Virus record (IMG/VR): IMGVR_UViG_3300028833_002293 | Location: 36,535 to 100,534 of that record | From: a virus | Lineage: Duplodnaviria > Heunggongvirae > Uroviricota > Caudoviricetes | Reading direction: 5' to 3' (one strand) | Length of the DNA: 64,000 bases | Part shown: piece by piece, positions 2,580 through 35,476 of the stretch | Layout of the letters: each line of letters begins with the position of its first letter | Numbering within the stretch: the first letter of the stretch is position 1 | Program-made: the position numbers and the translations under genes | Notes under the pieces: generated by a model | Databases searched by the model: none | Seen by the model: the letters and a program-made list of their open reading frames with translations, nothing else | Told to the model about the DNA's origin: nothing

Positions 2580-3920
2580 TCAATGCTTACAGTTTTTTAT
2601 TAAATTAAGTATATATTCACACTTTTCTTTGTTTCCTAACATTTTCCCTTTATCATTTGATAGTTTAACACAATCTTGCCACTCACGGCTTTCAGTAATT
2701 CTAAATCCAGTGAGTTTTATTACAATATTGCTATATGGGAACTTCTTTACTTCAACTGGATAATTACCTCTTATAGTTTTTCCATCCTTTACCTCGTCTA
2801 TTGCCATTGGAGTACCTAGTGTTTCACACCAAAGATAACTTACGTCAGCGCATAAATGAGTTCCTATTCCCACTGAATCTTTCATTCGCCCATTGACCCA
2901 TTTGTGTAATTCTATAGCCTTGTCAATTGTAAGAGCATTTGAATACACGATTGCCTTTGTCGATGGGTCAATACCAAGAGAACGATACTTTTCAATAATC
3001 TTCTCAGTTTGTTCTTTCTCATCACCACTATCAACACGTAGGCCATCAAATGTTTTCGCAAGACGCTTAGACAAATTAGGGAAGAACATAACATCTGAGA
3101 AATTATCATAAAGGAAAATTCCGACATCACCGTTAAAACAGCGACTCCACTTATCCATTACTTGATAGTTACATTCAAACACGCCACTAACGCACTCTTC
3201 GGCAGATACAATCTGATGCGACATCGTGCCTATAACTCCAAGGTTAAATTCCTTTGCGAACCATACGTTAGATGTACCAACAAATTTACCTAATTTATCG
3301 GATTCTACAACTTGACCAACATTGCTACCTTTTCCGCTTTCAATGGCTTCTTGTGCTGCCTTTAAACCCCTAATAACCTCATGTTGAGCCTCGTATGAAA
3401 AGCGTCTACGAGTTCCCATGTCACTCCAACTAACACCATTTGCAATTAGTTTATTACCTTTAATAAAAGCCTCTTGAAAAACAGTATCCATATTAACCAA
3501 TTTCATATCACCATTGATAGTGTGCATCAACTCAGAAATGGTGGAGAGAATAGGCATTTCCCACATAATTGTAGAATACCACTTACCCTCAATCATGATT
3601 GAGAGATAACCCTCAAGGTCTTGGAAAATGTGAACCTCAGATGGGTTGAAACGGAAACCACGCAAGAAATTGTAATACCAATCTGGAAGGAAATAAATCT
3701 TGCTCTTCATGAACTCAATCTCTTCCTCAGTGATAACGACATCTTTCATACCGTCAATCTGCTCTTGTAGAAGCTTACCAAAACCCTCTGGATAGCGAGT
3801 ATGGTTACGGTCAAAGAAAGAATACCGTACCTCTGCACGAGGATAAGTGTGAAGAATGTAATACTGGCAAGTGTACGTGTAAAGGTCATTGTCAGTGAAA
3901 TGTGTAACAATTTGATTCAT
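2580..3920 (-). CDS. nicotinate/nicotinamide phosphoribosyltransferase family enzyme (PncB/NadV-like)
   Basis: 446 aa ORF; size and overall composition match the type-II PRTase NAPRTase/NAMPT family; paired in this window with a nicotinamidase, an NMN deamidase and a Nudix enzyme. Confidence 0.55.
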   Translation of the reverse strand: MNQIVTHFTDNDLYTYTCQYYILHTYPRAEVRYSFFDRNHTRYPEGFGKLLQEQIDGMKDVVITEEEIEFMKSKIYFLPDWYYNFLRGFRFNPSEVHIFQDLEGYLSIMIEGKWYSTIMWEMPILSTISELMHTINGDMKLVNMDTVFQEAFIKGNKLIANGVSWSDMGTRRRFSYEAQHEVIRGLKAAQEAIESGKGSNVGQVVESDKLGKFVGTSNVWFAKEFNLGVIGTMSHQIVSAEECVSGVFECNYQVMDKWSRCFNGDVGIFLYDNFSDVMFFPNLSKRLAKTFDGLRVDSGDEKEQTEKIIEKYRSLGIDPSTKAIVYSNALTIDKAIELHKWVNGRMKDSVGIGTHLCADVSYLWCETLGTPMAIDEVKDGKTIRGNYPVEVKKFPYSNIVIKLTGFRITESREWQDCVKLSNDKGKMLGNKEKCEYILNLIKNCKH

Positions 3921-4367: not shown

Positions 4368-4674
4368 CCTCTTCTATATCATCGGCTGTTTCTCTAGTGC
4401 TGCTCCTACCATAGTAACTATTTGAATTGTTATAATAGGGGTTATATCTATCATGGGAGTTCTTAGAAAGCTCTCCCATGAAATAGAATGTCTCAGCACA
4501 AGAAACCATTAGGCATAGAACTAAGGCAATTCTGATTAAGCCTCTGAATAAATCTCTTCCCATTACCCAATAGCCATTAGCCAATCTTAATATCTTCATA
4601 ATTCTCGTGATACCACTTGTCGAATTCCTCGAACTCAGCGTCTGAGAACTCCTTACGTACTGCATCATACTCAA
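4309..4674 (-). CDS. hypothetical protein (N/Y-rich low-complexity tail)
   Basis: 121 aa ORF; overlaps neighbours at both ends, so the true start may be internal. Confidence 0.3.
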   Translation of the reverse strand: MSMMQYVRSSQTLSSRNSTSGITRIMKILRLANGYWVMGRDLFRGLIRIALVLCLMVSCAETFYFMGELSKNSHDRYNPYYNNSNSYYGRSSTRETADDIEEVDDYEQDTTRAYTQQEYEY

Positions 4675-5488
4675 TGTAATCGCAATACTTCACCTTAACG
4701 ATGACACGAGTGGAACTACCATTGCCACTGTAAAGAGGAATGATGGGACGTGCTACAATACCCTCCTCAAGCATTGTTGGGTCAGCAGCTCCCTCAAATT
4801 TGGTAGTGAAGCCCTTACGTACCATATCCTCAATGTCACGCAAGGTCATAACACCCAAGAAAGGAACTTGCTCAAGGCCAAGACACTTGCACATTGCATC
4901 ACGGTTCTCCTTTGGCAACCACCAACCTTGCCGTTTGATGTCGAACACACGGAATCCATTACCATTCTGAATGTAGCGAGAACCACACTTCTGAATACCA
5001 GTACCGAAATACTCACCGTAGATATAAACTGGAACCTCTTCAAGGGTTACACGATACATATCGGAACATAATGTTTCTGCTTTATTTCCATCGAGCCTAT
5101 AGTACTCTATTTTATTTGTTTCTTTGTCTTTTCTTGGAGTAAATCTAGCACTCTCTTTAGGGAACATTGCGCAAAGTTGTGGCTTGATGCGCTCACCAAT
5201 CTCTTGCAGCATTTCAAACTGTCCATGCTGAGAGCTTGCTTTATCAGTTTTGCCTTCAATTAAAATTTCTTGAGTTGATGGGAAAAAAGCAATTTTGCTA
5301 CAAGTTCCATCAATTTTGCTATATGCCTCCCAAGGACAATTGAAAAGGTAACTAGCCTCAATGTTTGAAAACTCGCCCAAGATTATTTTATTCTTGAACT
5401 TAAGCCACTTCTTGTTTGGACATTTACTACCATCAAATACATACCTTTTATACAAGGTGTTTATTTTTTGATAAACTTCTAGGCTCAT
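4577..5488 (-). CDS. ATP-dependent RNA ligase-like protein
   Basis: 303 aa ORF with nucleotidyltransferase motif I KIDGT (KxDG) near residue 60, as in T4 Rnl-type RNA ligases. Confidence 0.5.
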   Translation of the reverse strand: MSLEVYQKINTLYKRYVFDGSKCPNKKWLKFKNKIILGEFSNIEASYLFNCPWEAYSKIDGTCSKIAFFPSTQEILIEGKTDKASSQHGQFEMLQEIGERIKPQLCAMFPKESARFTPRKDKETNKIEYYRLDGNKAETLCSDMYRVTLEEVPVYIYGEYFGTGIQKCGSRYIQNGNGFRVFDIKRQGWWLPKENRDAMCKCLGLEQVPFLGVMTLRDIEDMVRKGFTTKFEGAADPTMLEEGIVARPIIPLYSGNGSSTRVIVKVKYCDYIEYDAVRKEFSDAEFEEFDKWYHENYEDIKIG

Positions 5489-5506
5489 AAATTTTATTTT
5501 TATTAA

Positions 5507-5710
5507 TTATTCTGTTTCTTCTCTCCACAAATTATTTTCCATTTTGTCGGAATAAGAAAATTCTATAATTTTGTCAATGTTATCACATTTAATTTTTTTC
5601 AGCACATCCAATTCAATTTCTCCATTATTGACGTCCTCAACAATAGACAGCAATGTTTTATATGGGGCTAATAAATTCCTAAGATGTGCTCCTAAAGTTT
5701 CTGTTGCCAT
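5507..5710 (-). CDS. hypothetical small protein
   Basis: 67 aa ORF downstream of a tRNA-like unit and promoter 6014..6052. Confidence 0.35.
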   Translation of the reverse strand: MATETLGAHLRNLLAPYKTLLSIVEDVNNGEIELDVLKKIKCDNIDKIIEFSYSDKMENNLWREETE

Positions 5711-5725
5711 TTTTTTATTATTTGT

Positions 5726-5808
5726 AGGACAATGTGGACTCGAACCACAGACCTCACCATACTAGTGTTTCCACGTTCTGCTGCGCTCTCCCAACTGAGC
5801 TATCGTCC
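5726..5808 (-). ncRNA. non-canonical tRNA-like element (acceptor, D-arm and T-arm present; anticodon region aberrant)
   Basis: reverse complement gives GGACGAT-A-GCTCAGTTGGGAGAGC...GTGGTTCGAGTCCAC-ATTGTCC; the interior does not fold as a normal anticodon arm; paralogous to the unit at 39745..39815. Confidence 0.4.
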
Positions 5809-6013
5809 TTAACGCAATCTTCATGCGGCTAGCGTTTCCTTCTTCCGCACTCATCCAAGTGATTGCTTGATAACCGACTGTTTTACAATCTCGGTCAAAC
5901 TAACTCCATTGCAAGCATCAATCTGTTCCGAAGTCGAGACTGTTATATCTTAGCAATGTCGTGTGGCAGGACTGCCCTCACCACGTCTTTCAGCTACCGT
6001 TTTGAAGCTTCAT

Positions 6014-6052
6014 GTTGCAAAGGTACGAAAAAATTTTCAAATACCCAAATAA
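6014..6052 (-). promoter_or_regulatory. Bacteroidota sigma-A-type promoter (-33 TTTG / -7 TAnnTTTG), variant copy
   Basis: plus: gttgcaaaggtacgaaaaaattttcaaatacccaaat; minus: ATTTGGG...(20 nt)...TACCTTTGCA. Confidence 0.5.
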
Positions 6053-6058
6053 TTTATG

Positions 6059-6691
6059 TTAAAATAGGTTAATATTGCAAAGTTTATATATTCCAATGCA
6101 CGAATAGATAAATGTAGCAATCAGAAGAATTCCCAATACTAATCCACCCCAAAAATAATAGATTAGCCCAAATATCATAAATAAGCCAATTATAACGCTT
6201 GCTGTGCCAAATACAAATTGATAATACAACAACGAATGTTTTATTGGATACTCTTTATCTTTGAAGTATTCTTTAGCATAATATCCAAGGGCTTTAGGTA
6301 CAGTCATTATAGACACCGATTTACTATGGTCATAGTTATTGTCGTGAATCATTCTACGTATAATCTGCACCCTTTTTATAAAATCACTATCAAAAGGTCT
6401 TATGGTAATGTCACCTACATAAGATAACTCATGTGTTCTTAATGCTGATATTTTTTCCCCTACGTCTAAACCATGCATTTTGAACAATGAACAGAATGAG
6501 CCAAATACTTTTTGATTTTTCAGTGCTTTATAAAAATCGAGAACAATGGGGTTATTGGTCTCGACACCTGAATTATGATAAACATTCAAAGTAGTCTCTC
6601 TAACTCCCAAAACCTCTTTTTCCACTTTTATTTTATTTGATATGGCTTGTTTACGTTTTCTTAACTTAACCTTTTTACTCTGTCTTGTCAT
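6059..6691 (-). CDS. hypothetical protein with C-terminal transmembrane anchor
   Basis: 210 aa ORF; hydrophobic C-terminus. Confidence 0.5.
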   Translation of the reverse strand: MTRQSKKVKLRKRKQAISNKIKVEKEVLGVRETTLNVYHNSGVETNNPIVLDFYKALKNQKVFGSFCSLFKMHGLDVGEKISALRTHELSYVGDITIRPFDSDFIKRVQIIRRMIHDNNYDHSKSVSIMTVPKALGYYAKEYFKDKEYPIKHSLLYYQFVFGTASVIIGLFMIFGLIYYFWGGLVLGILLIATFIYSCIGIYKLCNINLF

Positions 6692-6914
6692 TCTTCTTGA
6701 ATACGTCTTTGAAAGGCTTTACAATGCTTTTCCAACTGAATAGCCTATCAACTAATTTCTCACTGTCTAAGTCTATTACAAGACCCTCTAGTATTCCAAG
6801 TTTCTCTTTATATGTTGATGCCTCTTTTGAAACATCAACAAGGGTTGACTCCAACTGCTTGATTTTATTCTTCAAGCCATTGTACTCTGTCATCGGGATT
6901 TCTATCCTAGGCAT
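6675..6914 (-). CDS. hypothetical protein (coiled-coil-like)
   Basis: 79 aa ORF. Confidence 0.4.
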   Translation of the reverse strand: MPRIEIPMTEYNGLKNKIKQLESTLVDVSKEASTYKEKLGILEGLVIDLDSEKLVDRLFSWKSIVKPFKDVFKKNDKTE

Positions 6915-7489
6915 ACTCTTTCAGAATTTTCGATGAAGTTAGTAAACTTGTCAGCAGTATCTTGAGCGATTGCTGGACACAAATTCTTAATCACATGGAA
7001 ATTAACGTGAGGTAATCCCCTCAGTCCATCTTTTACAGAATCTTGGATGCAATAATCGTAGGCAATACCAGCGACATCAACATCAGTCACATTTAACTGC
7101 TCTTCACAGATTGTAATGAGCTTGTCACAAGATTTACCATTCTTGAAGATAGAATACTCTTCATGGTCTTCGTTTACGCCCTTTCTCAGAACAAGGTAAT
7201 CAGCCTTAATCTTGTTCAGTGCATCAAGAATTGGCTCATAGATAGCTGCACCTTTTGAATGCTGAACACAGTGAACTGGCCACATACCGCCATTATCCTT
7301 AAACGAACAGTGAGTGAACGGATGCCAGTCAACGGTAAGAATAATCTTATCATACACTGGACCATTTTCTATGATAAACTGAGCGAGTTTATCCATTGCT
7401 GCTGTTGCTCCATTAACAGCAAGCTTGCCACCTTCCAGGAAGTCGTATTGGCAATCAATCAGTAACAGTATTTTCGTCATTTGTTTCAC
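6902..7489 (-). CDS. pncA: nicotinamidase / isochorismatase-family hydrolase
   Basis: 195 aa; N-terminal LLLIDCQYDF and a catalytic Cys context typical of the PncA/isochorismatase fold. Confidence 0.6.
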   Translation of the reverse strand: MKQMTKILLLIDCQYDFLEGGKLAVNGATAAMDKLAQFIIENGPVYDKIILTVDWHPFTHCSFKDNGGMWPVHCVQHSKGAAIYEPILDALNKIKADYLVLRKGVNEDHEEYSIFKNGKSCDKLITICEEQLNVTDVDVAGIAYDYCIQDSVKDGLRGLPHVNFHVIKNLCPAIAQDTADKFTNFIENSERVCLG

Positions 7490-7874
7490 TTTTTATTTCT
7501 TCAGTTATTTCTTTTTTTACTTTCTTAGCACTAGCTTTCTTAGTACTTGCCTTTCTAGTACTTTTAGGTCTCTCTTCCTTGAGAGGAACATTTTTCACGT
7601 CTGATGGAAGTTCTTGGAAGAATGTATCAGTTTTGGGCATTTTTTCATTGATGTGCTGAACTGCATCGTTAAACTCCTTTTGCTCTTCCTCAGTCATTTC
7701 TCTAATCTCAGTCTTTTTCTGTTCCTCTAATTCCTTCAATTCTTTCAAAAACTGATGCTTAGATATATCATAGGTGACACAGCTATTATGGAATTTCTTC
7801 GCAAATAGCTCAGTGCAAGAACCTTCTGTTCTCTTTACACCCTTAAACGGACAATTCTTACATAATGTACCCAT
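7455..7874 (-). CDS. hypothetical Cys-containing / Lys-Glu-rich protein
   Basis: 139 aa ORF; promoter motif 7890..7925. Confidence 0.45.
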   Translation of the reverse strand: MGTLCKNCPFKGVKRTEGSCTELFAKKFHNSCVTYDISKHQFLKELKELEEQKKTEIREMTEEEQKEFNDAVQHINEKMPKTDTFFQELPSDVKNVPLKEERPKSTRKASTKKASAKKVKKEITEEIKSETNDENTVTD

Positions 7875-7997
7875 ATCTTATTATTTTTTCTGCAAAGATA
7901 CTAAAAATATTTTAAATATAAAAATATTATATAATATATTATATTTTATTAATATTATTTAATATATTATTATATATTACTTAAAGAACCTAATAGA

Positions 7998-9392
7998 TTA
8001 GACTGTTAGGCTCTTCAGTTTGTTCTCTACAATCTCAAATGCTTCATCCTTAGTCATGTTAGGATTCTCAAAGTAAGCATCTTTAACAGTTTCAAGGAGT
8101 ATTCCTATTGTTGGAGAAGGTTTGATTTTAAATTCTTTTATGATGTCATTCCCAGAAATTGGAAGTTTTACATTTGCAGCTTTCTCAGCATCTTCCATTT
8201 CCTCAATTCTATTAAGAATATCAAGAACTTGTCTCTTCTTCTTACCATAGGTACAGTGCAAGTTGTTTGCATTCATCAAGTCAACAGTTGTGCCAAGGTC
8301 TTCACCAGTGAGGTTAATGAACTTCCTAATCTTCTTATCTGGAGGCATCACACCATCAGCATAAGGCGCAAATCCCCTATGGAACTTAATGGCAGTCTCT
8401 ACCGCCTTAATAATATAGTTAGGGAACTTCATTGCCTTAAGGTCATCAGCAGCCACTTCAGCACTGAATTTGTCTGGATTAACGTCTCTCCTTCTGTCAG
8501 TAATGATTCTGCCAACGTCATGGAACAACGCAGCTAAACGGTTCTCAAGATACGGCTGCACAGTATCAACCACGTTCATGGTATGGTCGAAAGTAGATAC
8601 CATTGGATTCTTTGACTCAAACGCATAAGTTGTGTCGTAAATGTCTGGCATTACTCTATGCAGTATTCCACAGTAGTACATTTTGCGAATACCAATACTA
8701 GGCTTTTTACAAAGCAGTATCTTTGAGATTTCGTCACTGATACGCTCTTGAGAGATTATCTTGATTCGATGTGCATTTTTAACCATACCCAACCATGTAT
8801 TCTTCTCAATACCCCAACCAAATCTAGTTGAGAAACGTATAACACGCAGTATTCTCAATGGGTCATCGTTGAACGTAATGTCTGGGTCAGTCGGTGTCTT
8901 AATCACTTGGTTCACAAGGTCATCCAAACCGTTGTTATAATCGTGAATCTTCTCTGTGCTAATGTTGTAGTACAGAGAGTTGATTGTAAGGTCACGTCTC
9001 TTAGCATCCTCTTGAATCGTACCATACACTGTGTCTGGATTTCTGCTCTCCTTATGATACTGCTCCTTACGAGTCTGAACACACTCAATCTCAATGTCTT
9101 TCAGCTCATCGTTTTTATAAAGCTGAAATTTAGCAGTTCCATATGTCTCAAACACGACTGGATTAGTTCCTTGTATATAACACTGATGCTTCATTGCCAT
9201 GTAACTTGCAAAGAGCATCCCCCCATTTTTGATTTCAATAACGATGTCAACGTCTTTTATGGGTTCATTGAGTAACGCATCCCTCACAGCACCGCCACAA
9301 ATATATACTTTTCCTTCAAAATGAGTTCCTTTAATTGAAGACTGTATTAGTTTTAACAGCTTTTTTATTTTTTCATCCTTGAAAATTTCCAT
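7998..9392 (-). CDS. cca: CCA-adding tRNA nucleotidyltransferase with HD domain
   Basis: 464 aa; Pol-beta head motif GGAVRDALL...DVDIV plus an HD-domain (HDVGR) region, as in bacterial CCA-adding enzymes. Confidence 0.65.
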   Translation of the reverse strand: MEIFKDEKIKKLLKLIQSSIKGTHFEGKVYICGGAVRDALLNEPIKDVDIVIEIKNGGMLFASYMAMKHQCYIQGTNPVVFETYGTAKFQLYKNDELKDIEIECVQTRKEQYHKESRNPDTVYGTIQEDAKRRDLTINSLYYNISTEKIHDYNNGLDDLVNQVIKTPTDPDITFNDDPLRILRVIRFSTRFGWGIEKNTWLGMVKNAHRIKIISQERISDEISKILLCKKPSIGIRKMYYCGILHRVMPDIYDTTYAFESKNPMVSTFDHTMNVVDTVQPYLENRLAALFHDVGRIITDRRRDVNPDKFSAEVAADDLKAMKFPNYIIKAVETAIKFHRGFAPYADGVMPPDKKIRKFINLTGEDLGTTVDLMNANNLHCTYGKKKRQVLDILNRIEEMEDAEKAANVKLPISGNDIIKEFKIKPSPTIGILLETVKDAYFENPNMTKDEAFEIVENKLKSLTV

Positions 9393-9393
9393 T

Positions 9394-10353
9394 TTATTTA
9401 ATTAGTTGTAAAGGATTCATAAATTGGCATAGTTCATGCTCATAATAGAAAACTAAATCTGAGGGCTTTATTTCCATCCCACCTAGTAGCTTATACACTT
9501 GTGGCATATAAGTGACAGGAACGCCCTTTAAAATGCGTTTATGGGCATTTAAATAGTCTTCTTTCTCATATACAGTTAATATTGAGCTAGATGTAGCTAG
9601 TTTAAACTGCCTTGAATGAAGTTTAAATTTGCTTGCTTTATATTCTACGCCTTCAAAAATTTTTATTGGGTCAATTTCAAGTTTTTCAAATTCTTCCTCA
9701 CTACCGTTAAATTTTAATATGATTTCGTCAGCATTAAGAGAAAAATATTCTAATTTTGTGTGCATAATAAATGAAAATAAACTGCCACAGAATTCATTTG
9801 TAATCCATTTTTCAAGATTCATTGTTCTCTTTGGATTCATTTTACCAAAGATAACTTGTCTTATATATTTGGACTTCTTGATATAATCAAGGTCAGTGAA
9901 TTTTCCAATGAAATCCTCATATGTTTTGGTATCATACACAATGGATGGGTTAGCATATCTCAATGTTTGGAAATTTGCCTTTTTCATATCATATGATACA
10001 AACATACATCCATCTTGTTCGTTGGTATAGAGATTTCTATCACCGCATATCGGTTTTATGTCTTTAACATATTTGTTATCTGAAATAAACTCCTTATATG
10101 CATCTGAACTTGTCACTTTTGTGATAATATTATTCCTTACTTGATGATAATATTCAAGGAAGTTATTTGGCTTTCCTTCAAATCTTTCATCAATTAATGA
10201 CATAAGTTCATCATATGAAGTCTTAGCTCCATATTCCTCTTCAAGTAATTCCAATCTATCCTCAAAATAAGGATTTTGGAGAACTTGAATGGGTATATTC
10301 ATATCACTTACGAATCTTGCCCTTAATTGTTTTAATTCAGTTGATGTTTCCAT
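9394..10353 (-). CDS. hypothetical protein
   Basis: 319 aa ORF; promoter motif 10384..10425. Confidence 0.55.
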   Translation of the reverse strand: METSTELKQLRARFVSDMNIPIQVLQNPYFEDRLELLEEEYGAKTSYDELMSLIDERFEGKPNNFLEYYHQVRNNIITKVTSSDAYKEFISDNKYVKDIKPICGDRNLYTNEQDGCMFVSYDMKKANFQTLRYANPSIVYDTKTYEDFIGKFTDLDYIKKSKYIRQVIFGKMNPKRTMNLEKWITNEFCGSLFSFIMHTKLEYFSLNADEIILKFNGSEEEFEKLEIDPIKIFEGVEYKASKFKLHSRQFKLATSSSILTVYEKEDYLNAHKRILKGVPVTYMPQVYKLLGGMEIKPSDLVFYYEHELCQFMNPLQLIK

Positions 10354-10549
10354 TTTAATACATTTTTTTCTTTTTGCAAATATATGAAAAAAAGTTGAAT
10401 TGACAAAATATCAACCCAACTTTTAACTTTTTTTATGGTTCTTTTTACTCTTAAAAGAACCAATACCCAATAATGCGAATAAGGCATAAATACCTCCAAT
10501 TGTCCAACAAATTGGGCATAGTATCAAATTAACCATAATGTATTATTTT

Positions 10550-11317
10550 TCACCCATTATTGATTGAACATTCAAAAATGGATACAAGGTCATTTGGTTT
10601 CAGCTTTTCAACGAATCGTGGGAAAAAGTCATTTATCCACCTTTCCTCATTTCCATCGTCATCAACATCAACCCATCCATTCTTATCAGCATAGGCATAG
10701 TTCCAGTATGCTGTGCTATAGGTAACGTAAGCCTCCTTTGACTTGAAGTTCTCAAAGTATGCTTCCCTATCTTTCATTGAATTGTAAATGGTTTTCTCTT
10801 GGTCATTCTGTGGTTCTCTACCATCCACGACAAGTTCCCAAGCAGCTTCATATACCTCTTTGTTAGCACCATTCATTGCATTCCAATCAACGTCTTTAGC
10901 TAATGCACTATAAGATTCTGACCCATCTTTCAATTTCAATGGTATACAGAAATTGCGCCCTATCCTACAAGTGTTATATTTAACGTTAGGATTGTCTTCT
11001 GACAGTGCATCACCATCTTCATTGTAGTACATTCCGTCTGTAAGCTCTCTGTAGTACTCGAATGGTGTTAGCTTGCTAAGATTGTCTAAACGTGCTTGTA
11101 AGGCTTCTTTAAGCGTTGGTTGAAGCCCAATGGTATCTACGTTATCAAGCATCGTCTGAATGGCTTTAATTGCCGTATCTTGGTATTTCTTAGCGTTAAG
11201 GTATTTGTATTTGACGTATGGTTCTGACTTGTAATCAGAACCATACTTTTCTACTATTTGTTTTGGGTTCTCACCCACTACCATCAATGAATAAAATTTG
11301 CTATTTGTCTGTGCCAT
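10550..11317 (-). CDS. hypothetical acidic protein
   Basis: 255 aa ORF. Confidence 0.55.
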   Translation of the reverse strand: MAQTNSKFYSLMVVGENPKQIVEKYGSDYKSEPYVKYKYLNAKKYQDTAIKAIQTMLDNVDTIGLQPTLKEALQARLDNLSKLTPFEYYRELTDGMYYNEDGDALSEDNPNVKYNTCRIGRNFCIPLKLKDGSESYSALAKDVDWNAMNGANKEVYEAAWELVVDGREPQNDQEKTIYNSMKDREAYFENFKSKEAYVTYSTAYWNYAYADKNGWVDVDDDGNEERWINDFFPRFVEKLKPNDLVSIFECSINNG

Positions 11318-11319
11318 AA

Positions 11320-12810
11320 TTATCCATGTCCTTCTCCATTGTCGGTAGCTATAGCACCTCTTGTTGCATCTGCTACAGCACCTCTTAGTGTTGCTGGGTT
11401 GTAATATATCATGTCATCATTGTTAGCAGTAAAAGTGTTAACCAACTCAGCAGTAAGTCTATCAACCTCGTTTCTTATACCACGAACTGTTTCCTCATTT
11501 GGGTGAAGAACCTCATCATGGTCGATTACAGTAGTGTTAGTTGCACGTCTCATTGTACCATCGTCATAGATTTCGTAACGTCCTGGATTCCATGCAATTG
11601 GTGCGTCTAGTGCTTGTCTTACACCGTTATCTCTTCCATTGTTGTCTTCCTCTGCAAGCATTTCATCAATGAAATCTCTCTCTGCTTCATAATTGTTTCC
11701 CTCTTGAATGTTCTCTTCGTCTATAATTTCTTCATCTTCTTCCATTGTTTCATCATCAAATGGGTCATTGTATGTGAATTCATGCGCTTTCATTTTTTCA
11801 TTAAACGAATCAGCCACGTATTCATTTTCTTTAAGCATCTTCGAAAAATCAATTTTGAAAAAGGAAGAGGCTGCGTTATTAAAGTGGAAAAACTGAAACT
11901 TGTTTAAAGATTGGAAAAGAATGTCGTTAATTATGTTTTGACTAGAATTCTTAAATCTGCTATATACCCAGATATAAGGCTTCTTATTATTCTCTACAAT
12001 CTTGTTATAGATTTTATCCATAATCATTCTCTCTTCTGTTATATCCTTAATAACAGTATTATCCTTTGAAGCCCAAGTAGAATGTTTGAATGAGTTCATT
12101 CCAGGATATGCGAATGACGGACAGCTAGCAGTTACGACACAAGCGATATTATATTCTTTTAGAATCTTATCAATATCTTCTTCATTGTATTGCATTCTCT
12201 CATTTTCCCAATACATCTTTCTACCAACACGCTTCTCTTGCTCCATCCTCCATGTTCTGTCAAGAGATACACAACCACCAATACATAGGCAGTTAAACTT
12301 GTTCAGTTTGATAACTGAATAGTCTTGAACCGTTTTGATGTTACTGATGTCAATAAGAGCGTCTTCAAAATACTTAGGGTCATCGTTACCCCTCACAAAC
12401 AATACGTGTGTATTGTTGTCTGCTAGAACCTTATTAAACATTTCTAGCTTATCGTGATAGTATTTCAAATCCTTTTCGCCAAATCCATTGCAACCATCTA
12501 CTATAATAACAGTATCTGTGAGGCTGTAACCACAATTCATCATCTTTGGCATTTTTTTCAGTCTAGTAGGTCTAGGTGCATAGTGCGGTGCTGGACCACC
12601 AAATATTCCACCCCCACCGTTATGATTTTCTTCTTCCCTTTTCCTAGCTAGTCTCTCTTGTCTTTCAATCTCTTTGGGGTGTGTTTCAACCACATAGCTC
12701 TTTAAGTTGCGTAGACTGCCGACTACTGTCTTGATAAATCTATCAAAGTTTCCGTCAATGCTACCGCAAATTAAACAGTTTTTAGTTTTACCATAATCGT
12801 AAATTTTCAT
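11320..12810 (-). CDS. calcineurin-like metallophosphoesterase (possible polynucleotide 3'-phosphatase partner of the RNA ligase)
   Basis: 496 aa; GNDD motif (LFVRGNDDPKYF) and DGC...G metal-binding motifs of the calcineurin-like phosphoesterase fold; promoter 12850..12890. Confidence 0.55.
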   Translation of the reverse strand: MKIYDYGKTKNCLICGSIDGNFDRFIKTVVGSLRNLKSYVVETHPKEIERQERLARKREEENHNGGGGIFGGPAPHYAPRPTRLKKMPKMMNCGYSLTDTVIIVDGCNGFGEKDLKYYHDKLEMFNKVLADNNTHVLFVRGNDDPKYFEDALIDISNIKTVQDYSVIKLNKFNCLCIGGCVSLDRTWRMEQEKRVGRKMYWENERMQYNEEDIDKILKEYNIACVVTASCPSFAYPGMNSFKHSTWASKDNTVIKDITEERMIMDKIYNKIVENNKKPYIWVYSRFKNSSQNIINDILFQSLNKFQFFHFNNAASSFFKIDFSKMLKENEYVADSFNEKMKAHEFTYNDPFDDETMEEDEEIIDEENIQEGNNYEAERDFIDEMLAEEDNNGRDNGVRQALDAPIAWNPGRYEIYDDGTMRRATNTTVIDHDEVLHPNEETVRGIRNEVDRLTAELVNTFTANNDDMIYYNPATLRGAVADATRGAIATDNGEGHG

Positions 12811-12947: not shown

Positions 12948-15005
12948 TTAAGCTCTAGTAAGCTCGTACTCAAGAGCATCTTCTGTCTTGGTTACATCGC
13001 TTTCGACTACATACTTTCCGAAAATAGACTCTGTAGGCTTGATGTACTCATCCAAGTTGATGCCGCACTCTTTAGCAAGGTCTTTAGCTTGCTTTCTAAT
13101 CTTCAAGTCAGGTCTCTGACCAAGCAACTTGAGTGCTTCCATGTTCTTATTGCGGATGCAATTCTCAACAGCAGAACAATCAAAGTCGTTAACAACATTG
13201 ACATCAATGTTCTTCTTAGAGACAAGTGCCTCTACAACCCATACCTCGCTAGGATACTCACAAGCCACGTTAATAGCTGTATCGTTATTGAGGTCTTTAG
13301 CATTGAAGTCGAAAGTCTTACTTGACAGTATAGACTTAATCATACTTTTCAATAGAGTGTTGTCCTCCTTAGAGGTGCTAACCTCGTCACTACCACTCAG
13401 ATAAAGAAGTGACTCAAGAAGTGTCTCACCGAAACCATCCTCAATCTTAGAGTCAAAGCCCTCATAATTAACGATAGTGTCGAAAAGCTTGAACATCTTG
13501 TTGTTGATAGCTGAGAAGATAGGAACTCTCTGGTTGAACTCGTAGTTGACGTTAATCTTACCACGCTCCTTTTCAATTAGCTTGATTGCACCAATCTCAT
13601 CGTTCTCGTCAATGAGCTTATGAAGCAGAATAGATGGGTCAATTGCCTCACGGTTAAGGAAGTCATCTGTTGACATTCCAATTTTAGAGAAATAGCCGTC
13701 CCTTGTTATGTCTGCACCAAAAATGTCTTGCATTCTCACAAGAGACAATGTACCATATTGGTCTTTACGGTACTGCATCGCAATTAATGACTTGTCGTTA
13801 TTGATTGGGAGATTGAAATCCATGAACAAATAAATCTTGTTGCTGTTATCAATTCCATTGAAGTTATTAGCCTTAATGAAAGTTTTCTTAACAAAGTCAT
13901 TGAATGCTCTAGTGTTCAGAATGTTAAGAACCAAGCGTCCATCGTTTTCATATGCCACCGCATATGACTCTGGATTTTTCTTAACCATTTCCAAGATGTC
14001 TGTAATGTTCCATTTGAAACCCAAGTCTTTTGGGAGACGCATGAAGATGCTCATCTTGATACCGAACTTATCAAAAACGTTGTAGATACTCAGACTCTCA
14101 TTACCTTGAGTATAAGGACTAATCATACCATAGTTATGACAAGTCTGTGCCTCAACAATACCTTGACCACCCTCTACTGTAAAACCGATATGTGCGAATG
14201 CGTCAGTCTCCTTACGGCTGAAGTCGAACAAGAAGTATTGGTCACGGTTTGACTTACTTGTAACATAGTTCTTGAAATAGTTTTCTTCACGAGCGATACA
14301 CCATCCTGTACGCCCGTTACCACAAAGTTTATGGCTTGAATCGAATGAAGGGACATGAACGACCACACAAGGGCCTTCATTGAACACAACCTCACAGTCT
14401 TTTGTATTGTGCTCCATGTAAGCAAAAAGGTCTTCCTTACCCTCTTTCCAATCATAGGACTTATTCAAACAGTCCAAGATTGCTTGGTGAAGAGAATCAG
14501 CAGACTTGAGGGCAGAGCAAGTACTGTAGAACTTGTTCTTGATACCCATAGGCTTCTTATTAAATGCCTTAAAGACATCGTACCATTTTTTAATAGTTGG
14601 GCTTCCGTAAGCACCAAGAGGCGTGTATTCTCTTCCCAAGATAGTGTCAGTAAGAATTTTCCTCTGGTCGGTGTTGAAGCGTGAAATGATATTCTTAATA
14701 AACACAATACGGTCAACGCCTTCAATCTCTTTAAGTAACTGCGCAATACCACTTTTATTAGAGTATGACACTACGTTCCTTTTTTCGAGCTTACTAATTA
14801 AATTGCTGTTACCAACAATCCAATTGTGGATATGCTCAAGCTCTTCAAACGTCATAGACTGAGAGAAAATCATTCTAACAGCCCAAATCTGATAGTTTGA
14901 CTGGCCATCGAACATTTCACATACCTTAATAAACAATTTGTTAGTTTCTGGATTGATGCCATACTTATCAATCAAAGGCTGCATCTGTTTTTTGTTATAA
15001 GTCAT
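12948..15005 (-). CDS. large protein with C-terminal ankyrin repeats; shares a central domain with 15329..17809
   Basis: 685 aa; ankyrin-like repeats near the C-terminus; central region FLFDFSRKETDAFAHIGFT aligns with QYMIFDFSKLEDDKLSIVGFT of the next gene. Confidence 0.55.
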   Translation of the reverse strand: MTYNKKQMQPLIDKYGINPETNKLFIKVCEMFDGQSNYQIWAVRMIFSQSMTFEELEHIHNWIVGNSNLISKLEKRNVVSYSNKSGIAQLLKEIEGVDRIVFIKNIISRFNTDQRKILTDTILGREYTPLGAYGSPTIKKWYDVFKAFNKKPMGIKNKFYSTCSALKSADSLHQAILDCLNKSYDWKEGKEDLFAYMEHNTKDCEVVFNEGPCVVVHVPSFDSSHKLCGNGRTGWCIAREENYFKNYVTSKSNRDQYFLFDFSRKETDAFAHIGFTVEGGQGIVEAQTCHNYGMISPYTQGNESLSIYNVFDKFGIKMSIFMRLPKDLGFKWNITDILEMVKKNPESYAVAYENDGRLVLNILNTRAFNDFVKKTFIKANNFNGIDNSNKIYLFMDFNLPINNDKSLIAMQYRKDQYGTLSLVRMQDIFGADITRDGYFSKIGMSTDDFLNREAIDPSILLHKLIDENDEIGAIKLIEKERGKINVNYEFNQRVPIFSAINNKMFKLFDTIVNYEGFDSKIEDGFGETLLESLLYLSGSDEVSTSKEDNTLLKSMIKSILSSKTFDFNAKDLNNDTAINVACEYPSEVWVVEALVSKKNIDVNVVNDFDCSAVENCIRNKNMEALKLLGQRPDLKIRKQAKDLAKECGINLDEYIKPTESIFGKYVVESDVTKTEDALEYELTRA

Positions 15006-31297: not shown

Positions 31298-31378
31298 AAT
31301 GTGAACCCCCTCAAGGAATCGAACCTCGTTATTACAGCACCACGCCAAATGTCCTACCATTAGACGAAAGGGGTATGG
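31298..31378 (-). ncRNA. tRNA-like element (acceptor, D-arm and T-arm fold; anticodon stem does not pair) - possible pseudo-tRNA
   Basis: reverse complement: ACCCCTT-TC-GTCTAATGGTAGGAC...CGAGG-TTCGATT-CCTTG-AGGGGGT. Confidence 0.3.
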
Positions 31379-31577
31379 ACGAGAAATGATTTTGCTAGCG
31401 TTGCTCACTTCTCGCAAAAGCAACAGTTGTACTCAACCAACGAGACGGTTTAAAACACCCCAACAGAGCCATATTCCGACAACCCGCTCAGTTGCTATAA
31501 GACCAACCACTCTACAAGCTTACGTGCCCACCATTGCACGTTGAAAAAGGAAAGCTTGCTCACCCTTTAGAATTACA

Positions 31578-32414
31578 TCATCGTCTAACGTTCCACATCT
31601 GATTGGTGCTGCCACCACCGACAAGGACATCAATATTAGCACCTTGTTTTTCTGCAATGGTCTCAATCCACTTCAAGCTAATAAAATCAGCTGCGCTCAA
31701 ATGCATTTCCTCCATATATGCCTTATCAGCCTTTGCTCTCTGACGTTCAGCCTTTTCACGCGCCATTTGAACCTCTGCCTCGCGGTCTTGCGTCTGTTTT
31801 GCTTGCACAGCCTTGGCAGTCTTGTTCATTTCCTCAAGCTGCTCCTTATTAGGAAGCGCCTTACCAATGGTGACTTGCTTTATAATTACTGGAAATTCCT
31901 TCTCCTTTGACAACTTCGCCACATAATCTTGCATTTGTTTCAAAACCTTTGCATCAATATCATTCAAAATTGCACGGTTGGACATAAGGTCAAAAGGACT
32001 ATGCTGAGAAATATGGTCTCTAACTAGGTTGCAATAATAGTTATAAAGGTTTGTGTCAAACCAAGCAGTACCATAATTCTGCAAAAGAATAGGAGACTTG
32101 CCCTTAATAATCTGAGTGATGATAATCGTATGAAAATCAAGTGGAGTATTGTCATCGGAGAACAAGTCATCCATATCCACTTGGTGTTTAAAAGGCACAA
32201 TCTTAAACGTCTCGGTGTCAGTTGACCACCAAATCCATTCCAAACCCGTCTCTACTGGCTTCTCTTGTACACCACCATGACCCAAGAACCAAGGCTTGTC
32301 AATCAAGACGGTTTCCTCGTCAGCATCAACTGTGGTGCAACCAATACACGATGTCATCGTCAAACTCAACATTGCTACGAGAGCAATCGAAAACATTGCT
32401 AAAATTTTCTTCAT
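31578..32414 (-). CDS. lipoprotein, function unknown
   Basis: 278 aa; signal peptide plus Cys lipobox (LTMTSC). Confidence 0.5.
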   Translation of the reverse strand: MKKILAMFSIALVAMLSLTMTSCIGCTTVDADEETVLIDKPWFLGHGGVQEKPVETGLEWIWWSTDTETFKIVPFKHQVDMDDLFSDDNTPLDFHTIIITQIIKGKSPILLQNYGTAWFDTNLYNYYCNLVRDHISQHSPFDLMSNRAILNDIDAKVLKQMQDYVAKLSKEKEFPVIIKQVTIGKALPNKEQLEEMNKTAKAVQAKQTQDREAEVQMAREKAERQRAKADKAYMEEMHLSAADFISLKWIETIAEKQGANIDVLVGGGSTNQMWNVRR

Positions 32415-32456
32415 AATTTTTTATTCTTTAAATTAAAAGTTAAATAGTTCGATTTG

Positions 32457-32771
32457 TTAATAGAAAATACCTACCTCTACCTCAAGGGAAGACAAAGTAT
32501 TTGCGGTTACAAGCTCCTTATCAATGATGTTGATTTTTGCGTAGCCACAGTCACCGCCCTTAATGTAGATGCTACCATCTTTCTTACGCTTGACACTTTC
32601 ATTTTCCCAATCCTTGCGGTCTTCCTCGTCATCGAAATTGTAATCCTCAAGAATCTTTTCGTAAACTTTCTCTACTACAGCCTTGGCTGTCTCCTTACTG
32701 TCACAAGGGATGACATCAGTACTTACATCATAGTCATCGCTGTCGAAAAACATTGTTTCTACTACAATCAT
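32457..32771 (-). CDS. hypothetical acidic protein
   Basis: 104 aa ORF; promoter 32819..32855. Confidence 0.45.
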   Translation of the reverse strand: MIVVETMFFDSDDYDVSTDVIPCDSKETAKAVVEKVYEKILEDYNFDDEEDRKDWENESVKRKKDGSIYIKGGDCGYAKINIIDKELVTANTLSSLEVEVGIFY

Positions 32772-32860
32772 TGTTTTTTATTATTTAAAGTTAATACTAT
32801 GTTGTTCTCAAATTCGATGCAAAGATATGAAAAATAATTGAAATACCCAAATTATTAATG

Positions 32861-33244
32861 TTAATCTTTCTTAATGGGGCAAACTTTTGGCTTATCCTCT
32901 GTGATGGTATCAACAACCCATTGGATAAAATCATCTTGAATTTTTGCCGCATCAGTAGGATTAAGACCGTATCCACCACTTCCAGTTAACGCACCCCAAC
33001 CACGAACCATAATGAGGATTCCGCTGACATAAAGCCTATCTTTATCAACATTAATATCAGCCTTATCGTATTTTTCAGCTATCTCACCATTAAGCAAACC
33101 AACGATGTGATTCATGTGTGTTTGAGCCTTATCTCCAAATGCAGTAAAAGTTTTAATTCCGTTACTACTATATGCATATATGTTAAAGTCCGCAATTCTA
33201 AACGGTGGCGCATATACATCTTTAAATGTCAATTTCTCTTTCAT
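32861..33244 (-). CDS. hypothetical protein (start trimmed to an internal Met because the ORF's 5' part reads through a tRNA)
   Basis: ORF 32861..33307 begins with GSNPSS, i.e. translation of a tRNA T-arm; second Met at 33244. Confidence 0.45.
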   Translation of the reverse strand: MKEKLTFKDVYAPPFRIADFNIYAYSSNGIKTFTAFGDKAQTHMNHIVGLLNGEIAEKYDKADINVDKDRLYVSGILIMVRGWGALTGSGGYGLNPTDAAKIQDDFIQWVVDTITEDKPKVCPIKKD

Positions 33245-33247
33245 AGT

Positions 33248-33323
33248 TGCAGAGGATGGATTCGAACCAACGACCTCCCTCGTTATGAACAAGGGCGAGC
33301 TGACCAAAACTGCTCTACTCTGC
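33248..33323 (-). tRNA. tRNA with CAU anticodon (Met/Ile2-type), slightly irregular stems
   Basis: reverse complement: GCAGAGT..GAGCAGTTTTGGTCAGCTC..CCTTG-TTCATAA-CGAGG..GTTGG-TTCGAAT-CCATC-CTCTGC-A. Confidence 0.5.
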
Positions 33324-33746
33324 GGACGCTATCTGTTTATTACGTCTATTATAGCAAAGACCTAAGTACTTAGAATGAAATCGAACTTTCAAAAGGCAAT
33401 GGCCTGTCACCTAATGACTCAGATTCCATCGTGGACCAGGTAGGGCTTGAACCTACGTGTAACCAATTACGGTTTCAACTGCTTATGAGGCAGAGCCGAT
33501 ACAAGTCCAAATTGCCAAAGGAACTTTCAGATTAATTCTATCGTATATGCCGTGCTTTACGCCTAGTCTCAACACATTTAAGCCATAATCTCACCGTTTA
33601 TGTCACACATACGAATCCTATGTTAGACTCTCTTTGGCTATGATTTTATTCAATAGTAGTCTTCATCATCATGAAGGCCTATCATAATTTATTTTTTTAG
33701 TTTCGTGATGCAAAGATACGAAAAAAAATTGAGATTACCAAATATT

Positions 33747-34184
33747 TTAAAGTTTTTTAAGCTTTAAATAAAAAAATAGCCCAACCCCCAGTATAATTGA
33801 CAACATGCATACTAATACAATAGTAGCTAAGATACCAAGTAATGTCATGGATAGTTTAAGAAGGTTACTAATAAAACCGTTAAAGTCTTTTTCAAATTCT
33901 TTTTGTTCGGCTTCTTTCTTCGCTTTTTCTGCTGCTTCCTCTCTTTTCTTTATCTCTTTCCTAATGGAGTCATTTTTGGAATTACTTATTGGAATTAGGT
34001 TAAGTTCATCTACCTTAAATCCTAATTGAACCTTGTGTTCATCATTGAAGATAAGGTATTCTGTTCCATCTTTATCTTTAACCTTATTTCCTTTAAGCCA
34101 AAAGGTATCACCATAAGCCAATAAAGAAAATGACACCACAATTGTTATGAATACAATAGTCCAAAATTTTCTAACAGTAATCAT
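33747..34184 (-). CDS. membrane protein with coiled-coil / Lys-Glu-rich segment
   Basis: 145 aa; N- and C-terminal TM segments. Confidence 0.45.
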   Translation of the reverse strand: MITVRKFWTIVFITIVVSFSLLAYGDTFWLKGNKVKDKDGTEYLIFNDEHKVQLGFKVDELNLIPISNSKNDSIRKEIKKREEAAEKAKKEAEQKEFEKDFNGFISNLLKLSMTLLGILATIVLVCMLSIILGVGLFFYLKLKKL

Positions 34185-34222
34185 ATTGGCAAAAAATTAT
34201 TCTAGTAGAAATAAAAAACCAC

Positions 34223-34594
34223 TTAGTAACTCATGCGTGAGGGAATACATCCCCTCACACCCCCTCTTGGGTCTTCAACATCACCATCATACCTTGGTAT
34301 AATATGAATGTGGCAGTGCATCACGGTTTGTCCAGCACTCTTACCACAATTAACACCAATGTTATAACCACTTGGATGATACTTATCATCAAGTATTCCT
34401 TTAACGTGGTCAACTGCGCCAACAAGAGCACCCAATTCCACTTGGTTTAAATCAAAATAAGTTTCACAATGTCTTTTGGGAATTAATAGGGCATGCCCTT
34501 CCGAGACTGGATAACCATCTAAAATAGCCACCCATAAAGAATCTTGATAGACTATTCTATCTTCTTTGATGCCACAAAATACACAACCTTCCAT
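34223..34594 (-). CDS. HIT-family nucleotide hydrolase
   Basis: 123 aa; histidine-triad motif HCHIHIIP. Confidence 0.65.
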   Translation of the reverse strand: MEGCVFCGIKEDRIVYQDSLWVAILDGYPVSEGHALLIPKRHCETYFDLNQVELGALVGAVDHVKGILDDKYHPSGYNIGVNCGKSAGQTVMHCHIHIIPRYDGDVEDPRGGVRGCIPSRMSY

Positions 34595-35094: not shown

Positions 35095-35476
35095 TTTTTA
35101 TTTCCATTTTTTTACCATACAATTCCATCTGTACTTTCAACATCCTTTTGTTGATGTCTTGACGCTGTTTTCTTAATTCATCTATAACATGGTTATATGC
35201 CTCTTCTTTATTGAGATATATCTTAGTGTAACCACAATCATATACGGTAGACTTAAGTATGTTAACACCACGATTATAATATCCACCGTCAAAATATATT
35301 GTGTGGAATATATTTTCTTGGCATCTTCCCAATTTATCAACTAATGTGAGGTCTAATGAATTGTCATTATAGCGACTTATAGATACTTTACCCCTTTTAG
35401 CTTTTATGGTATTACCTTTAACTTCATAGTAATCTATGATTTGTCCTTCCATTTGTTTTAAATCATCAAATGTCAT
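35084..35476 (-). CDS. hypothetical protein
   Basis: 130 aa ORF; promoter 35504..35542. Confidence 0.5.
   Translation of the reverse strand: MTFDDLKQMEGQIIDYYEVKGNTIKAKRGKVSISRYNDNSLDLTLVDKLGRCQENIFHTIYFDGGYYNRGVNILKSTVYDCGYTKIYLNKEEAYNHVIDELRKQRQDINKRMLKVQMELYGKKMEIKNEG

Follow-up and report, generated by a model that had tools for sequence, protein, structure and literature searches.

We have analyzed a 64 kb stretch of phage DNA with 35.8% G+C (positions 36,535 to 100,534 of the IMG/VR record IMGVR_UViG_3300028833_002293), called the window in what follows, in which three open reading frames (ORFs) located between positions 4577 and 12810 code for an RNA ligase, a CCA-adding enzyme and a phosphoesterase-like protein. 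A reading made from the sequence alone had delimited these three ORFs exactly, all of them on the minus strand, and had joined them into a tRNA repair module in which the phosphoesterase would take the place of Pnkp, the kinase-phosphatase of phage T4. Our results correct this attractive reading: no phosphoesterase-based variant of Pnkp/Rnl1 tRNA repair is encoded in the window. The interval is probably an auxiliary-gene stretch, with two RNA-end enzymes and one dead enzyme relative placed among genes for the salvage of nicotinamide adenine dinucleotide (NAD), and not a three-enzyme module. The best explanation, which we hold with moderate confidence, combines a CCA enzyme that matures and maintains tRNAs encoded without CCA, a minimal Rnl2-like ligase and a dead phosphoesterase that belongs to another block of genes.

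A phosphoesterase-like protein with a degenerate active site

The product of ORF 11320-12810 gave only spurious matches, all to acidic tails, when it was compared with Pfam, PHROGs, NCBIfam and the PDB as a single sequence or as a family profile, and the metallophosphoesterase family PF00149 did not match it even at an E value of 0.01. Its fold was established by structure prediction, and the predicted structure is an alpha/beta sandwich of the metallophosphoesterase type. The fold comparison listed Dbr1 (15.7), CWF19L1 (15.4), aq_1956 (15.3), TT1561 (15.0), Rv0805 (13.7) and Mre11 (12.6), and Foldseek against viral models led to the same fold. Given this fold, the GNDD tetrapeptide that the sequence-only reading had taken as a phosphoesterase signature is truly the remnant of motif III. 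The activity that such a signature implies is improbable, as the protein keeps only one of the seven catalytic or metal positions. Specifically, the canonical D-x-H is replaced by S17-I-D19, G-D by G106-C107 and GNHD by GN-DD (N142, with the His deleted), while A228 is found in the place of the following canonical H and R285 in that of the H belonging to GHxH. The closest viral structural match was A0A8S5RY88 of BFVD (31% identity), a 617-aa Myoviridae protein with a Hint/intein annotation that may be an intein-interrupted member of the family.

When 1.84 billion cluster representatives were searched with a profile, the family was seen to comprise 1,635 clusters at E values up to 1e-3. The complete canonical set (GDxHG, GDxGxG, RGNHDDP, S/T-H and YGHFH) was present in 38 of the best 150 representatives. 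Actually, the 49 best-scoring ones keep between 0 and 3 of the seven positions, and the canonical members start at rank 50. Nine out of ten canonical relatives scanned with Pfam pass PF00149 (32-45 bits versus a cut-off of 21.5); the tenth (P0357) had no match to it and gave a weak one to Metallophos_2 only. The homologue in the phage Lak-A1 is canonical as well, with all seven positions (GDPHG, GDNGVGF, RGNHDNP, SHNCP and YGHFH). When the family was compared by hhalign with one canonical phage metallophosphoesterase, motif III was the only part aligned, with a probability of 2%. The close homologues of the window protein (n=136) are all on huge-phage-like contigs, and the former catalytic positions are not conserved even among the members of this degenerate clade. 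The residues that are invariant in the clade are R140, G141, D143, P145, C176, G178, G179, S182, D184, W187, E204, P231, F233, W246 and W281.

This is the pattern of a pseudo-enzyme, in which the fold and the surface appear to be kept and the metal site appears to be abandoned. ORF 11320-12810 codes most likely for a non-catalytic protein devoted to binding or to serve as a scaffold. Since one catalytic position is left in it and 0-3 in its clade, and all seven are found in the distant members and in Lak-A1, its sequence makes it a poor candidate for the removal of 2',3'-cyclic or 3'-phosphates and hence for the replacement of Pnkp.

Linkage of the phosphoesterase-like gene

A nicotinamidase gene, a membrane protein gene and several unmatched ORFs lie among the three ORFs in the window, and the ligase gene is flanked by pncA and pncB. 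Relatives at 39-54% identity present the order ankyrin (Ank) gene, phosphoesterase-like, 255 aa, (318 aa), CCA enzyme, PncA, ligase, PncB and NADAR. The whole region is collinear in the clade and therefore the conserved order says little about coupling; it is compatible with some functional coupling or with mere collinearity along the genome.

More distant relatives were informative in this respect. In one of those carrying the canonical phosphoesterase (L015) the CCA gene is found two genes on and the ligase was not found within 10 kb; in another (L014) neither the CCA gene nor the ligase was within 10 kb. In Lak-A1 the homologues of the ligase and the phosphoesterase are 161 kb apart. On the contrary, the order formed by the Ank gene, the phosphoesterase or phosphoesterase-like gene and the 255-aa gene was constant in all the relatives examined, and the canonical orthologues fill the same slot, from the Ank gene to the ~255-aa gene. 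The neighbours on these two sides being constant and the ligase and CCA genes variable, the phosphoesterase(-like) gene belongs with the Ank and the 255-aa genes. The claim that it replaces Pnkp finds support neither in its catalytic residues nor in its linkage.

A larger conserved block can be recognized here, with genes at 12948-19309 on the minus strand: an M20-like protein of ~490 aa (17819-19309), a protein of ~830 aa (15329-17809), the Ank protein of ~690 aa (12948-15005), and then the phosphoesterase(-like) protein and the one of ~255 aa. From the M20-like to the ~255-aa gene, this block is kept far beyond the close clade (L014, L015, L003, L005, L007 and L009). The 319-aa gene located between the CCA gene and the 255-aa gene is missing from that position in L007, L014 and L015. 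Some motifs of this ORF (9394-10353) had been guessed to be PolA-like; they found no support in Pfam, PHROG or NCBIfam searches and were dropped.

Search for end-healing enzymes

We searched the window for the enzymes that could heal RNA ends, by Pfam on the ~70 larger ORFs together with a Walker-A scan, and found no polynucleotide kinase, HAD phosphatase, 2H, RtcB, Tpt1 or RlaP. The sole Walker-A motif of the window belongs to an AAA_25/KaiC-like ORF (30278-31264). Besides, no kinase was found in the ~10 kb that adjoin the window on its left side, which were reached via the NADAR protein, so that the separate polynucleotide kinase that the sequence-only reading proposed to look for did not appear in either place. 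As neither a kinase nor a working healing phosphoesterase was found in the 64 kb, a heal-and-seal pathway of the T4 type is not encoded in the window. Within the interval, the signature residues of a phosphohydrolase-type site are intact only in the HD domain of the CCA enzyme. If the ligase repairs tRNA cut by nucleases, healing would be carried out by this HD domain, by enzymes encoded elsewhere in the genome or by the host.

Two genes outside of the window are relevant in this context. The same phage codes for a canonical metallophosphoesterase of 226 aa on the plus strand of L019 (8055-8735), ~7 kb past the left edge and ~12 kb from the ligase. It matches PF00149, its motifs SDMHG, AGNHD, SHDAP and GHLH are intact, and MPPED2 ranks first among its PDB matches (E 1e-6), which makes a working phosphodiesterase possible as judged from these motifs. 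The other is found in the relative L014, whose phosphoesterase is canonical, and codes for the RNA 2'-phosphotransferase Tpt1/KptA (2026-2550 on the plus strand; PF01885, E 1e-38). Tpt1/KptA is an RNA-repair enzyme that consumes NAD+.

A short RNA ligase of the Rnl2 type

ORF 4577-5488 matched the Pfam family RNA_ligase (PF09414) with an E value of 4e-12 (47 bits over a cut-off of 27). The KIDGT motif recognized in the sequence-only reading (aa 58-62) is inside this match and, because of that, is not a chance pentapeptide. The protein also matched phrog_548 and phrog_968, described as 'RNA ligase', and PF09414 was present in all of the 120 ligase homologues among the matches listed. By tblastn, homologues annotated as RNA ligase were found in crAss-like phages (30-32% identity), Lak phages, a 65-kb podovirus and Streptomyces phages, and the similarity to the T4-like 'RNA ligase 2' extended over the C-terminal half. 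A profile of the close homologues compared by hhalign with the Rnl2 of Klebsiella phage KP27 gave a probability of 97%. In the PDB search this close-homologue profile was uninformative, while one that included the homologues of crAss-like, Lak and Streptomyces phages worked. Its best match was the adenylyltransferase domain of T4 Rnl2 (1s68, E 3.4e-12), followed by full-length T4 Rnl2 (2hvq, E 3e-11) and by the archaeal RNA ligases Pab1020 (2vug, E 4e-5) and MthRnl (5d1o, E 0.02). The PDB entries named 'DNA ligase' were much weaker than Rnl2 (3qwu, E 1e-4; 8ucf, E 2.5e-3). Capping enzymes were absent from the PDB matches of the profile, and the sequence left after motif V is too short to hold an OB domain. 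All this identifies an RNA ligase and not a DNA ligase or a capping enzyme. The parallel with the repair ligase Rnl1 had to be given up, as no Rnl1 chain was found in the PDB at E values up to 10 with the single ligase sequence or with the family profiles.

Motifs I, III, IIIa, IV and V are intact, and K58/D60/G61, E159, F182/D183, E242/G243 and K265/K267 are invariant. G162 and Q166 are invariant too across the crAss-like, Lak, Streptomyces-phage and T4-like homologues. The protein stops 36 aa after K267 (motif V), leaving the ~95-aa C-domain of KP27 Rnl2 unmatched in the alignment, and groups with the short ligases (~205-300 aa) of crAss-like, Lak and Streptomyces phages. In T4 Rnl2 the C-terminal domain is required for the adenylate-transfer step of nick sealing. 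Lacking this domain, the short family must therefore bind its substrate differently. There is an N-terminal segment with ~20 extra aa and a conserved YxKIxTLYKR, and the ligases of the huge-phage clade have two insertions, after aa ~16 and at aa ~66-150; segment and insertions are candidates, from their sequence, for a compensation in substrate binding.

The genomic context of the family is diverse. In every relative examined the gene is between pncA and pncB. In the Streptomyces phage Coruscant the homologue is in the middle of a tRNA array, a position that by analogy points to a role related to tRNA. The location in crAss-like phages, beside DNA polymerase I and the mRNase HicA, does not point to such a role; in these phages and in the 65-kb podovirus the ligase is near DNA polymerase, HicA or nuclease genes, with 0-1 tRNA genes in the few kb examined. 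From its family and motifs, the window ligase would be adenylylated at K58 and would seal RNA breaks already bearing 3'-OH and 5'-phosphate ends, and broken tRNAs would be a plausible substrate.

The CCA-adding enzyme and the phage tRNAs

The identification of ORF 7998-9392 as a nucleotidyltransferase of the CCA-adding type with an HD domain was supported by the searches. The protein matches the PolyA_pol head (PF01743, E 3.4e-26), PolyA_pol_RNAbd (PF12627, E 6.4e-16) and tRNA_NucTran2_2, as well as the tRNA nucleotidyltransferases of phrog_2244 (E 4.9e-60), and its best PDB matches are CCA-adding enzymes (top 9ns2, E 4.9e-33). The motifs GGAVRD (aa 33), DVD (aa 47), RRD (aa 132) and DDPLR (aa 176) could be located, together with the C-terminal HD motif (H270 and H291-D292). 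The HD domain of Escherichia coli Cca has phosphatase and 2',3'-cyclic phosphodiesterase activities.

ARAGORN detected 28 tRNA genes between 31303 and 62551, and in none of them (0/28) is there a CCA after the discriminator, whichever base is taken as such. Not having it encoded, the phage tRNAs need CCA addition for their maturation. The most direct and economical role for the enzyme would be the synthesis of the 3' CCA on the tRNAs of the phage itself, its presumed substrate. To rebuild this end after damage would be the same chemistry, and such a repair is plausible. Rfam applied to the whole window gave 30 tRNAs and one transfer-messenger RNA (tmRNA), and a local Rfam scan added two tRNAs. 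The module had been described as lying next to the tRNA array. This is not the case, since 18.5 kb separate ORF 11320-12810 from the nearest tRNA of the array (31303-31374) and the distance from the ligase to this tRNA is 25.8 kb, with ~25 unrelated genes in between (dihydrofolate reductase, NUDIX, a leucine-rich repeat protein, an aspartyl protease and the AAA_25 ATPase among them).

A single tRNA-like gene (5725-5809), not noticed in the sequence-only reading, is closer, with 236 nt between it and the start codon of the ligase downstream. Its acceptor, D and T arms are good, and the anticodon arm has ~25 nt instead of 13 (an insertion of ~12-14 nt). It is strain-specific: identical copies are found in L001 and L002, which are the same strain, and it is absent in L003, L005 and L007. 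Insertions in the anticodon arm were also observed in two tRNA-like genes of the minus strand, at 39747-39871 (53 nt, Rfam 39.4 bits) and 59029-59142 (34 nt, 35 bits). In several of the tRNAs for Lys, Asn and Met the variable arm is long (86-89 nt), which is unusual for these identities (48113-48199, 51684-51772 and 41567-41652, minus strand). These odd tRNA genes could be introns, decoys or pseudo-tRNAs. The 538-nt 'intron' proposed by ARAGORN in a tRNA-Tyr at 62743-63367 had no Rfam support and was discarded as a false positive.

Other elements were found inside the array. The phage tmRNA (42175-42537, minus strand), not called by ARAGORN, matched RF00023 over the full model (76.9 bits versus a gathering threshold of 47, E 4e-28). 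YrlA (Y RNA-like) matches at 59452-59572 and 61929-62030 (minus strand) stayed at 35.3 and 33.3 bits, under the gathering threshold of 69, and may reflect only a tRNA-like module. Three HNH-type endonuclease genes are found among the tRNA genes on the minus strand (45342-46088, 50857-51273 and 55348-55962), and there is a weak Endonuclease V-like match at 46235-46882.

Weighing the alternatives

The proposal of a single tRNA heal-and-seal module made by the ligase, the CCA enzyme and the phosphoesterase, with the calcineurin-like protein replacing the phosphatase of Pnkp and clearing 2',3'-cyclic or 3'-phosphates, looks highly improbable to us. Six of the seven catalytic positions are substituted and unconserved in the clade, there is no Pfam Metallophos match although the active relatives do match, and no kinase was found in the window. 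Besides, pncA, the membrane protein gene and other unrelated genes are interspersed, and the linkage to the ligase and CCA genes is lost in the relatives with an active enzyme and in Lak-A1. A dispersed tRNA repair, directed against nucleases that cut anticodons or acceptor ends, deserves more attention and is possible, if well short of probable. Healing would depend here on the HD domain of the CCA enzyme, on the 226-aa metallophosphoesterase and on a kinase, the latter encoded elsewhere or provided by the host. The intact HD motif together with the activities of E. coli Cca, the canonical MPPED2-like enzyme at L019, the Tpt1/KptA of L014 and the ligase homologue embedded in the tRNA array of a Streptomyces phage all go in this direction. 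They have to be balanced against the lack of a kinase in the 64 kb and the 10 kb flank, a 226-aa enzyme with no demonstrated link to RNA, and ligase homologues of crAss-like phages and the 65-kb podovirus with 0-1 tRNA genes in the few kb examined. It is rather unlikely, to our judgement, that the ligase is unrelated to tRNA and seals nicks in duplex RNA, RNA:DNA hybrids or mRNA, as was proposed for T4 Rnl2, its position being due to the neighbours involved in NAD and nucleotide metabolism. The closest solved relative, T4 Rnl2, is indeed a nick-sealing enzyme, and the location between pncA and pncB in every relative examined, or beside DNA polymerase I and HicA in crAss-like phages, would be well accounted for. 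However, the Rnl2 C-domain needed for nick sealing is absent, the Streptomyces-phage homologue is inside a tRNA array and the window ligase has a tRNA-like gene 236 nt upstream.

We give very little credit to the idea that the ligase splices short intervening sequences of the phage tRNA genes, in a protein-dependent tRNA splicing and not in repair. The 12-53 nt insertions in the anticodon arms of the three tRNA-like genes (5725-5809, 39747-39871 and 59029-59142, with Rfam scores of 35-43 bits each) and the presence of Tpt1 in a relative go in its favour. Nevertheless, a splicing endonuclease was not found, the insertions are at non-canonical positions and could mark pseudo-tRNAs, the element adjacent to the ligase is strain-specific, and the intron mode of ARAGORN is prone to false positives, as in the case of the 538-nt 'intron' without Rfam support. 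Regarding the phosphoesterase-like protein, a definite history can be imagined in which an orthologue of an active phosphodiesterase lost its metal site and kept the fold, R140/D143/D184/E204, the acidic tail and the Ank and 255-aa partners, so that it now binds instead of cleaving; we consider this a doubtful conjecture. A binding protein of this kind could be, for example, a sponge or decoy for a signal containing a phosphodiester or for an RNA end, or a scaffold for its neighbours.

We prefer then the explanation of a CCA enzyme for the phage tRNAs, a minimal ligase and a dead phosphoesterase of another block, and several observations weigh against it. The order from the phosphoesterase-like gene through the CCA gene, pncA and the ligase to pncB is kept down to 39% identity. 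The window is ~15% of a genome of ~400 kb and a gene of the Pnkp type may exist elsewhere, and the canonical 226-aa metallophosphoesterase is encoded by the same phage. A rebuilt, non-canonical site is conceivable in the phosphoesterase-like protein, where D143, D184, E204 and R140 are invariant and the window sequence has Asp or Asn at 19, 105, 108, 142 and 144. The predicted structure of the ligase has a predicted local distance difference test score (pLDDT) of 40 from a shallow alignment (76-100% identity), so its classification rests on sequence profiles. As for the CCA enzyme, its best NCBIfam match, to the CCA model TIGR02692 (E 4.8e-62, 210 bits), is below the cut-off of 438.8, the PcnB and A-adding models match too, and all the NCBIfam matches are under the equivalog cut-offs, a sequence result compatible with CCA addition as well as with CC or A addition or poly(A) synthesis.

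Phage, host and other genes of the window

Megablast of the region against the 50,697 phage records of INPHARED gave no match, and metagenomic contigs of 300-416 kb carry the close homologues of the proteins of the interval; because of these two results the source is an uncultivated, very large phage with a genome of ~400 kb. Remoter homologues are found in crAss-like phages and in the Prevotella Lak megaphages. The host may plausibly belong to the Bacteroidota. The minus strand carries 74 of the 78 non-overlapping ORFs of at least 70 aa. The TAG stop is rare, ending 3 of the 78 ORFs, and a suppressor-type tRNA of 92 nt with the anticodon CTA, which reads TAG, is found at 36322-36413 (minus strand). 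These two features suggest that TAG recoding is possible elsewhere in the genome.

Genes related to NAD are dispersed around and among the three ORFs (520-1032, 2580-3920, 6902-7489, 22209-22823, 34223-34594 and 34594-35094, all on the minus strand). The set is formed by NADAR, PncB, the PncA-like nicotinamidase, NUDIX, a HIT-family protein and a nicotinamide mononucleotide deamidase domain of the CinA/PncC type. By analogy with jumbo phages, they may be a set for NAD+ salvage or against NAD+ depletion. A scan for sigma-70 promoters gave 54 matches versus 50.1 in shuffles, not above them, with a consensus unsuited to a Bacteroidota host. An A+T-rich hairpin of 16 pairs followed by a T-run (10390-10424, minus strand) is located in the 196-nt gap from the 255-aa gene to ORF 9394-10353 and overlaps a promoter-like match. 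This hairpin, which matches the consensus only, could be the boundary of a transcription unit. The coordinates of the main features are given in Table 1.

Table 1. Main features of the analyzed region (positions within the window).
Feature	Position	Strand	Remarks
Nicotinate phosphoribosyltransferase PncB	2580..3920	-	TIGR01514, 296 bits vs cut-off 269.55; PF04095, PF17767; just downstream of ligase
ATP-dependent RNA ligase, 303 aa, Rnl2-like nucleotidyltransferase domain only	4577..5488	-	PF09414, PHROG and profile matches
Ligase motif I KIDGT, aa 58-62	5303..5317	-	K58 is the predicted AMP-accepting lysine
tRNA-like gene without encoded CCA	5725..5809	-	Rfam tRNA 42.9 bits, E 8e-8 (local search); ARAGORN intron mode
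Membrane protein	6059-6691	
Nicotinamidase, PncA-like	6902..7489	-	NF008623, E 5.8e-25; PF00857, E 2e-5; between CCA gene and ligase gene
Class II tRNA nucleotidyltransferase, CCA-adding type, 464 aa	7998..9392	-	Pfam, PHROG, NCBIfam and PDB matches
HD segment of the CCA enzyme	8358..8555	-	PF01966, 22.7 bits vs cut-off 22; TIGR00277 HDIG, E 4e-4
319-aa protein	9394..10353	-	Between CCA gene and 255-aa gene; no Pfam, PHROG or NCBIfam match
255-aa protein	10550..11317	-	No Pfam, PHROG or NCBIfam match; starts 2 nt past the end of the phosphoesterase-like ORF
Phosphoesterase-like protein, acidic C-terminal tail, aa 331-496 (25% D+E, 8% K+R), predicted disordered	11320..11820	-	pLDDT <50 over most of aa 330-496
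Phosphoesterase-like protein, N-terminal domain, aa 1-330, predicted calcineurin-like metallophosphoesterase fold, degenerate active site	11821..12810	-
685-aa protein, C-terminal ankyrin repeats	12948..15005	-	Weak Ank_2 and Ank_4; upstream neighbour of the phosphoesterase-like gene
Dispersed tRNA array	31303..62653	-	28 by ARAGORN, a few more by Rfam, one tmRNA

Taken together, an uncultivated clade of ~400-kb phages, with genes in common with the Lak megaphages and the crAss-like phages, carries a short Rnl2-type ligase family and a CCA-adding enzyme that matches its set of CCA-less tRNA genes. The short ligase family is widespread and is found in the tRNA array of one Streptomyces phage, and is therefore a reasonable target for biochemistry. 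The decay of the active site within an otherwise conserved phage phosphoesterase family (1,635 clusters) is clear and provides a modest, clean example of a viral pseudo-enzyme. The conserved pseudo-phosphoesterase and the short ligase family are the most interesting part of what remains of the original proposal.

Comparison with known systems

The window ligase shares with T4 Rnl2 (gp24.1, PF09414) the nucleotidyltransferase domain and motifs I, III, IIIa, IV and V. It differs in the absence of the all-helical C-terminal domain and in the addition of the N-terminal segment and the two insertions of the clade. The T4 system that counters PrrC is made by Pnkp and Rnl1 (gp63), the latter being the tRNA-repair ligase of this phage. 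The likeness to it is that of a tRNA-rich phage with an ATP-dependent ligase able to seal healed breaks; the differences are that the window ligase is not Rnl1 and that the search of the window gave neither a kinase nor a HAD phosphatase. In the RNA repair by Pnkp/Hen1, the bacterial Pnkp has a healing domain of the metallophosphoesterase type, with the binuclear metal site kept and fused to kinase and ligase domains. In contrast, ORF 11320-12810 has neither the metal ligands nor the fusion, and no kinase was found in the window to accompany it. Similarly, the CCA enzyme shares the head, the neck, tRNA_NucTran2_2 and HD with the class II CCA-adding enzymes that have an HD domain (bacterial Cca, phrog_2244), differing from bacterial Cca in that it stays below every NCBIfam equivalog cut-off. 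Inactive proteins with a metallophosphoesterase fold have precedents in the B-subunits of DNA polymerases alpha, delta and epsilon and in Plasmodium GAP50. No sequence relationship to them was observed, and, unlike them, ORF 11320-12810 comes from a phage-specific family in which canonical members remain.

The bacterial Pnkp is already a precedent for a metallophosphoesterase that heals RNA ends, and the claim of an unusual variant of the repair pathway is not supported. In jumbo phages, polynucleotide kinases and HAD phosphatases have been described, and 'in a small number' of them phosphatases of the calcineurin-like or HD type (PMC7824862). Iyer et al. (2021) found that the tRNA sets of these phages are supplemented by Rnl1, Rnl2 and RtcB ligases, and that CCA-adding enzymes, NADAR, Nudix and NAD-synthesis genes are recurrent counter-defence equipment (PMC7824862). 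The window fits in this set, except that we did not find in it the kinase and phosphatase partners with which the ligases are usually congruent. The association of an RNA ligase and a CCA enzyme with large phage tRNA sets and with tRNA-targeting defences, also put forward in the sequence-only reading, is the published view of jumbo phages (PMC7824862). The general idea of an RNA repair set in these phages is thus already described, and the window is a new instance of it (PMC7824862).

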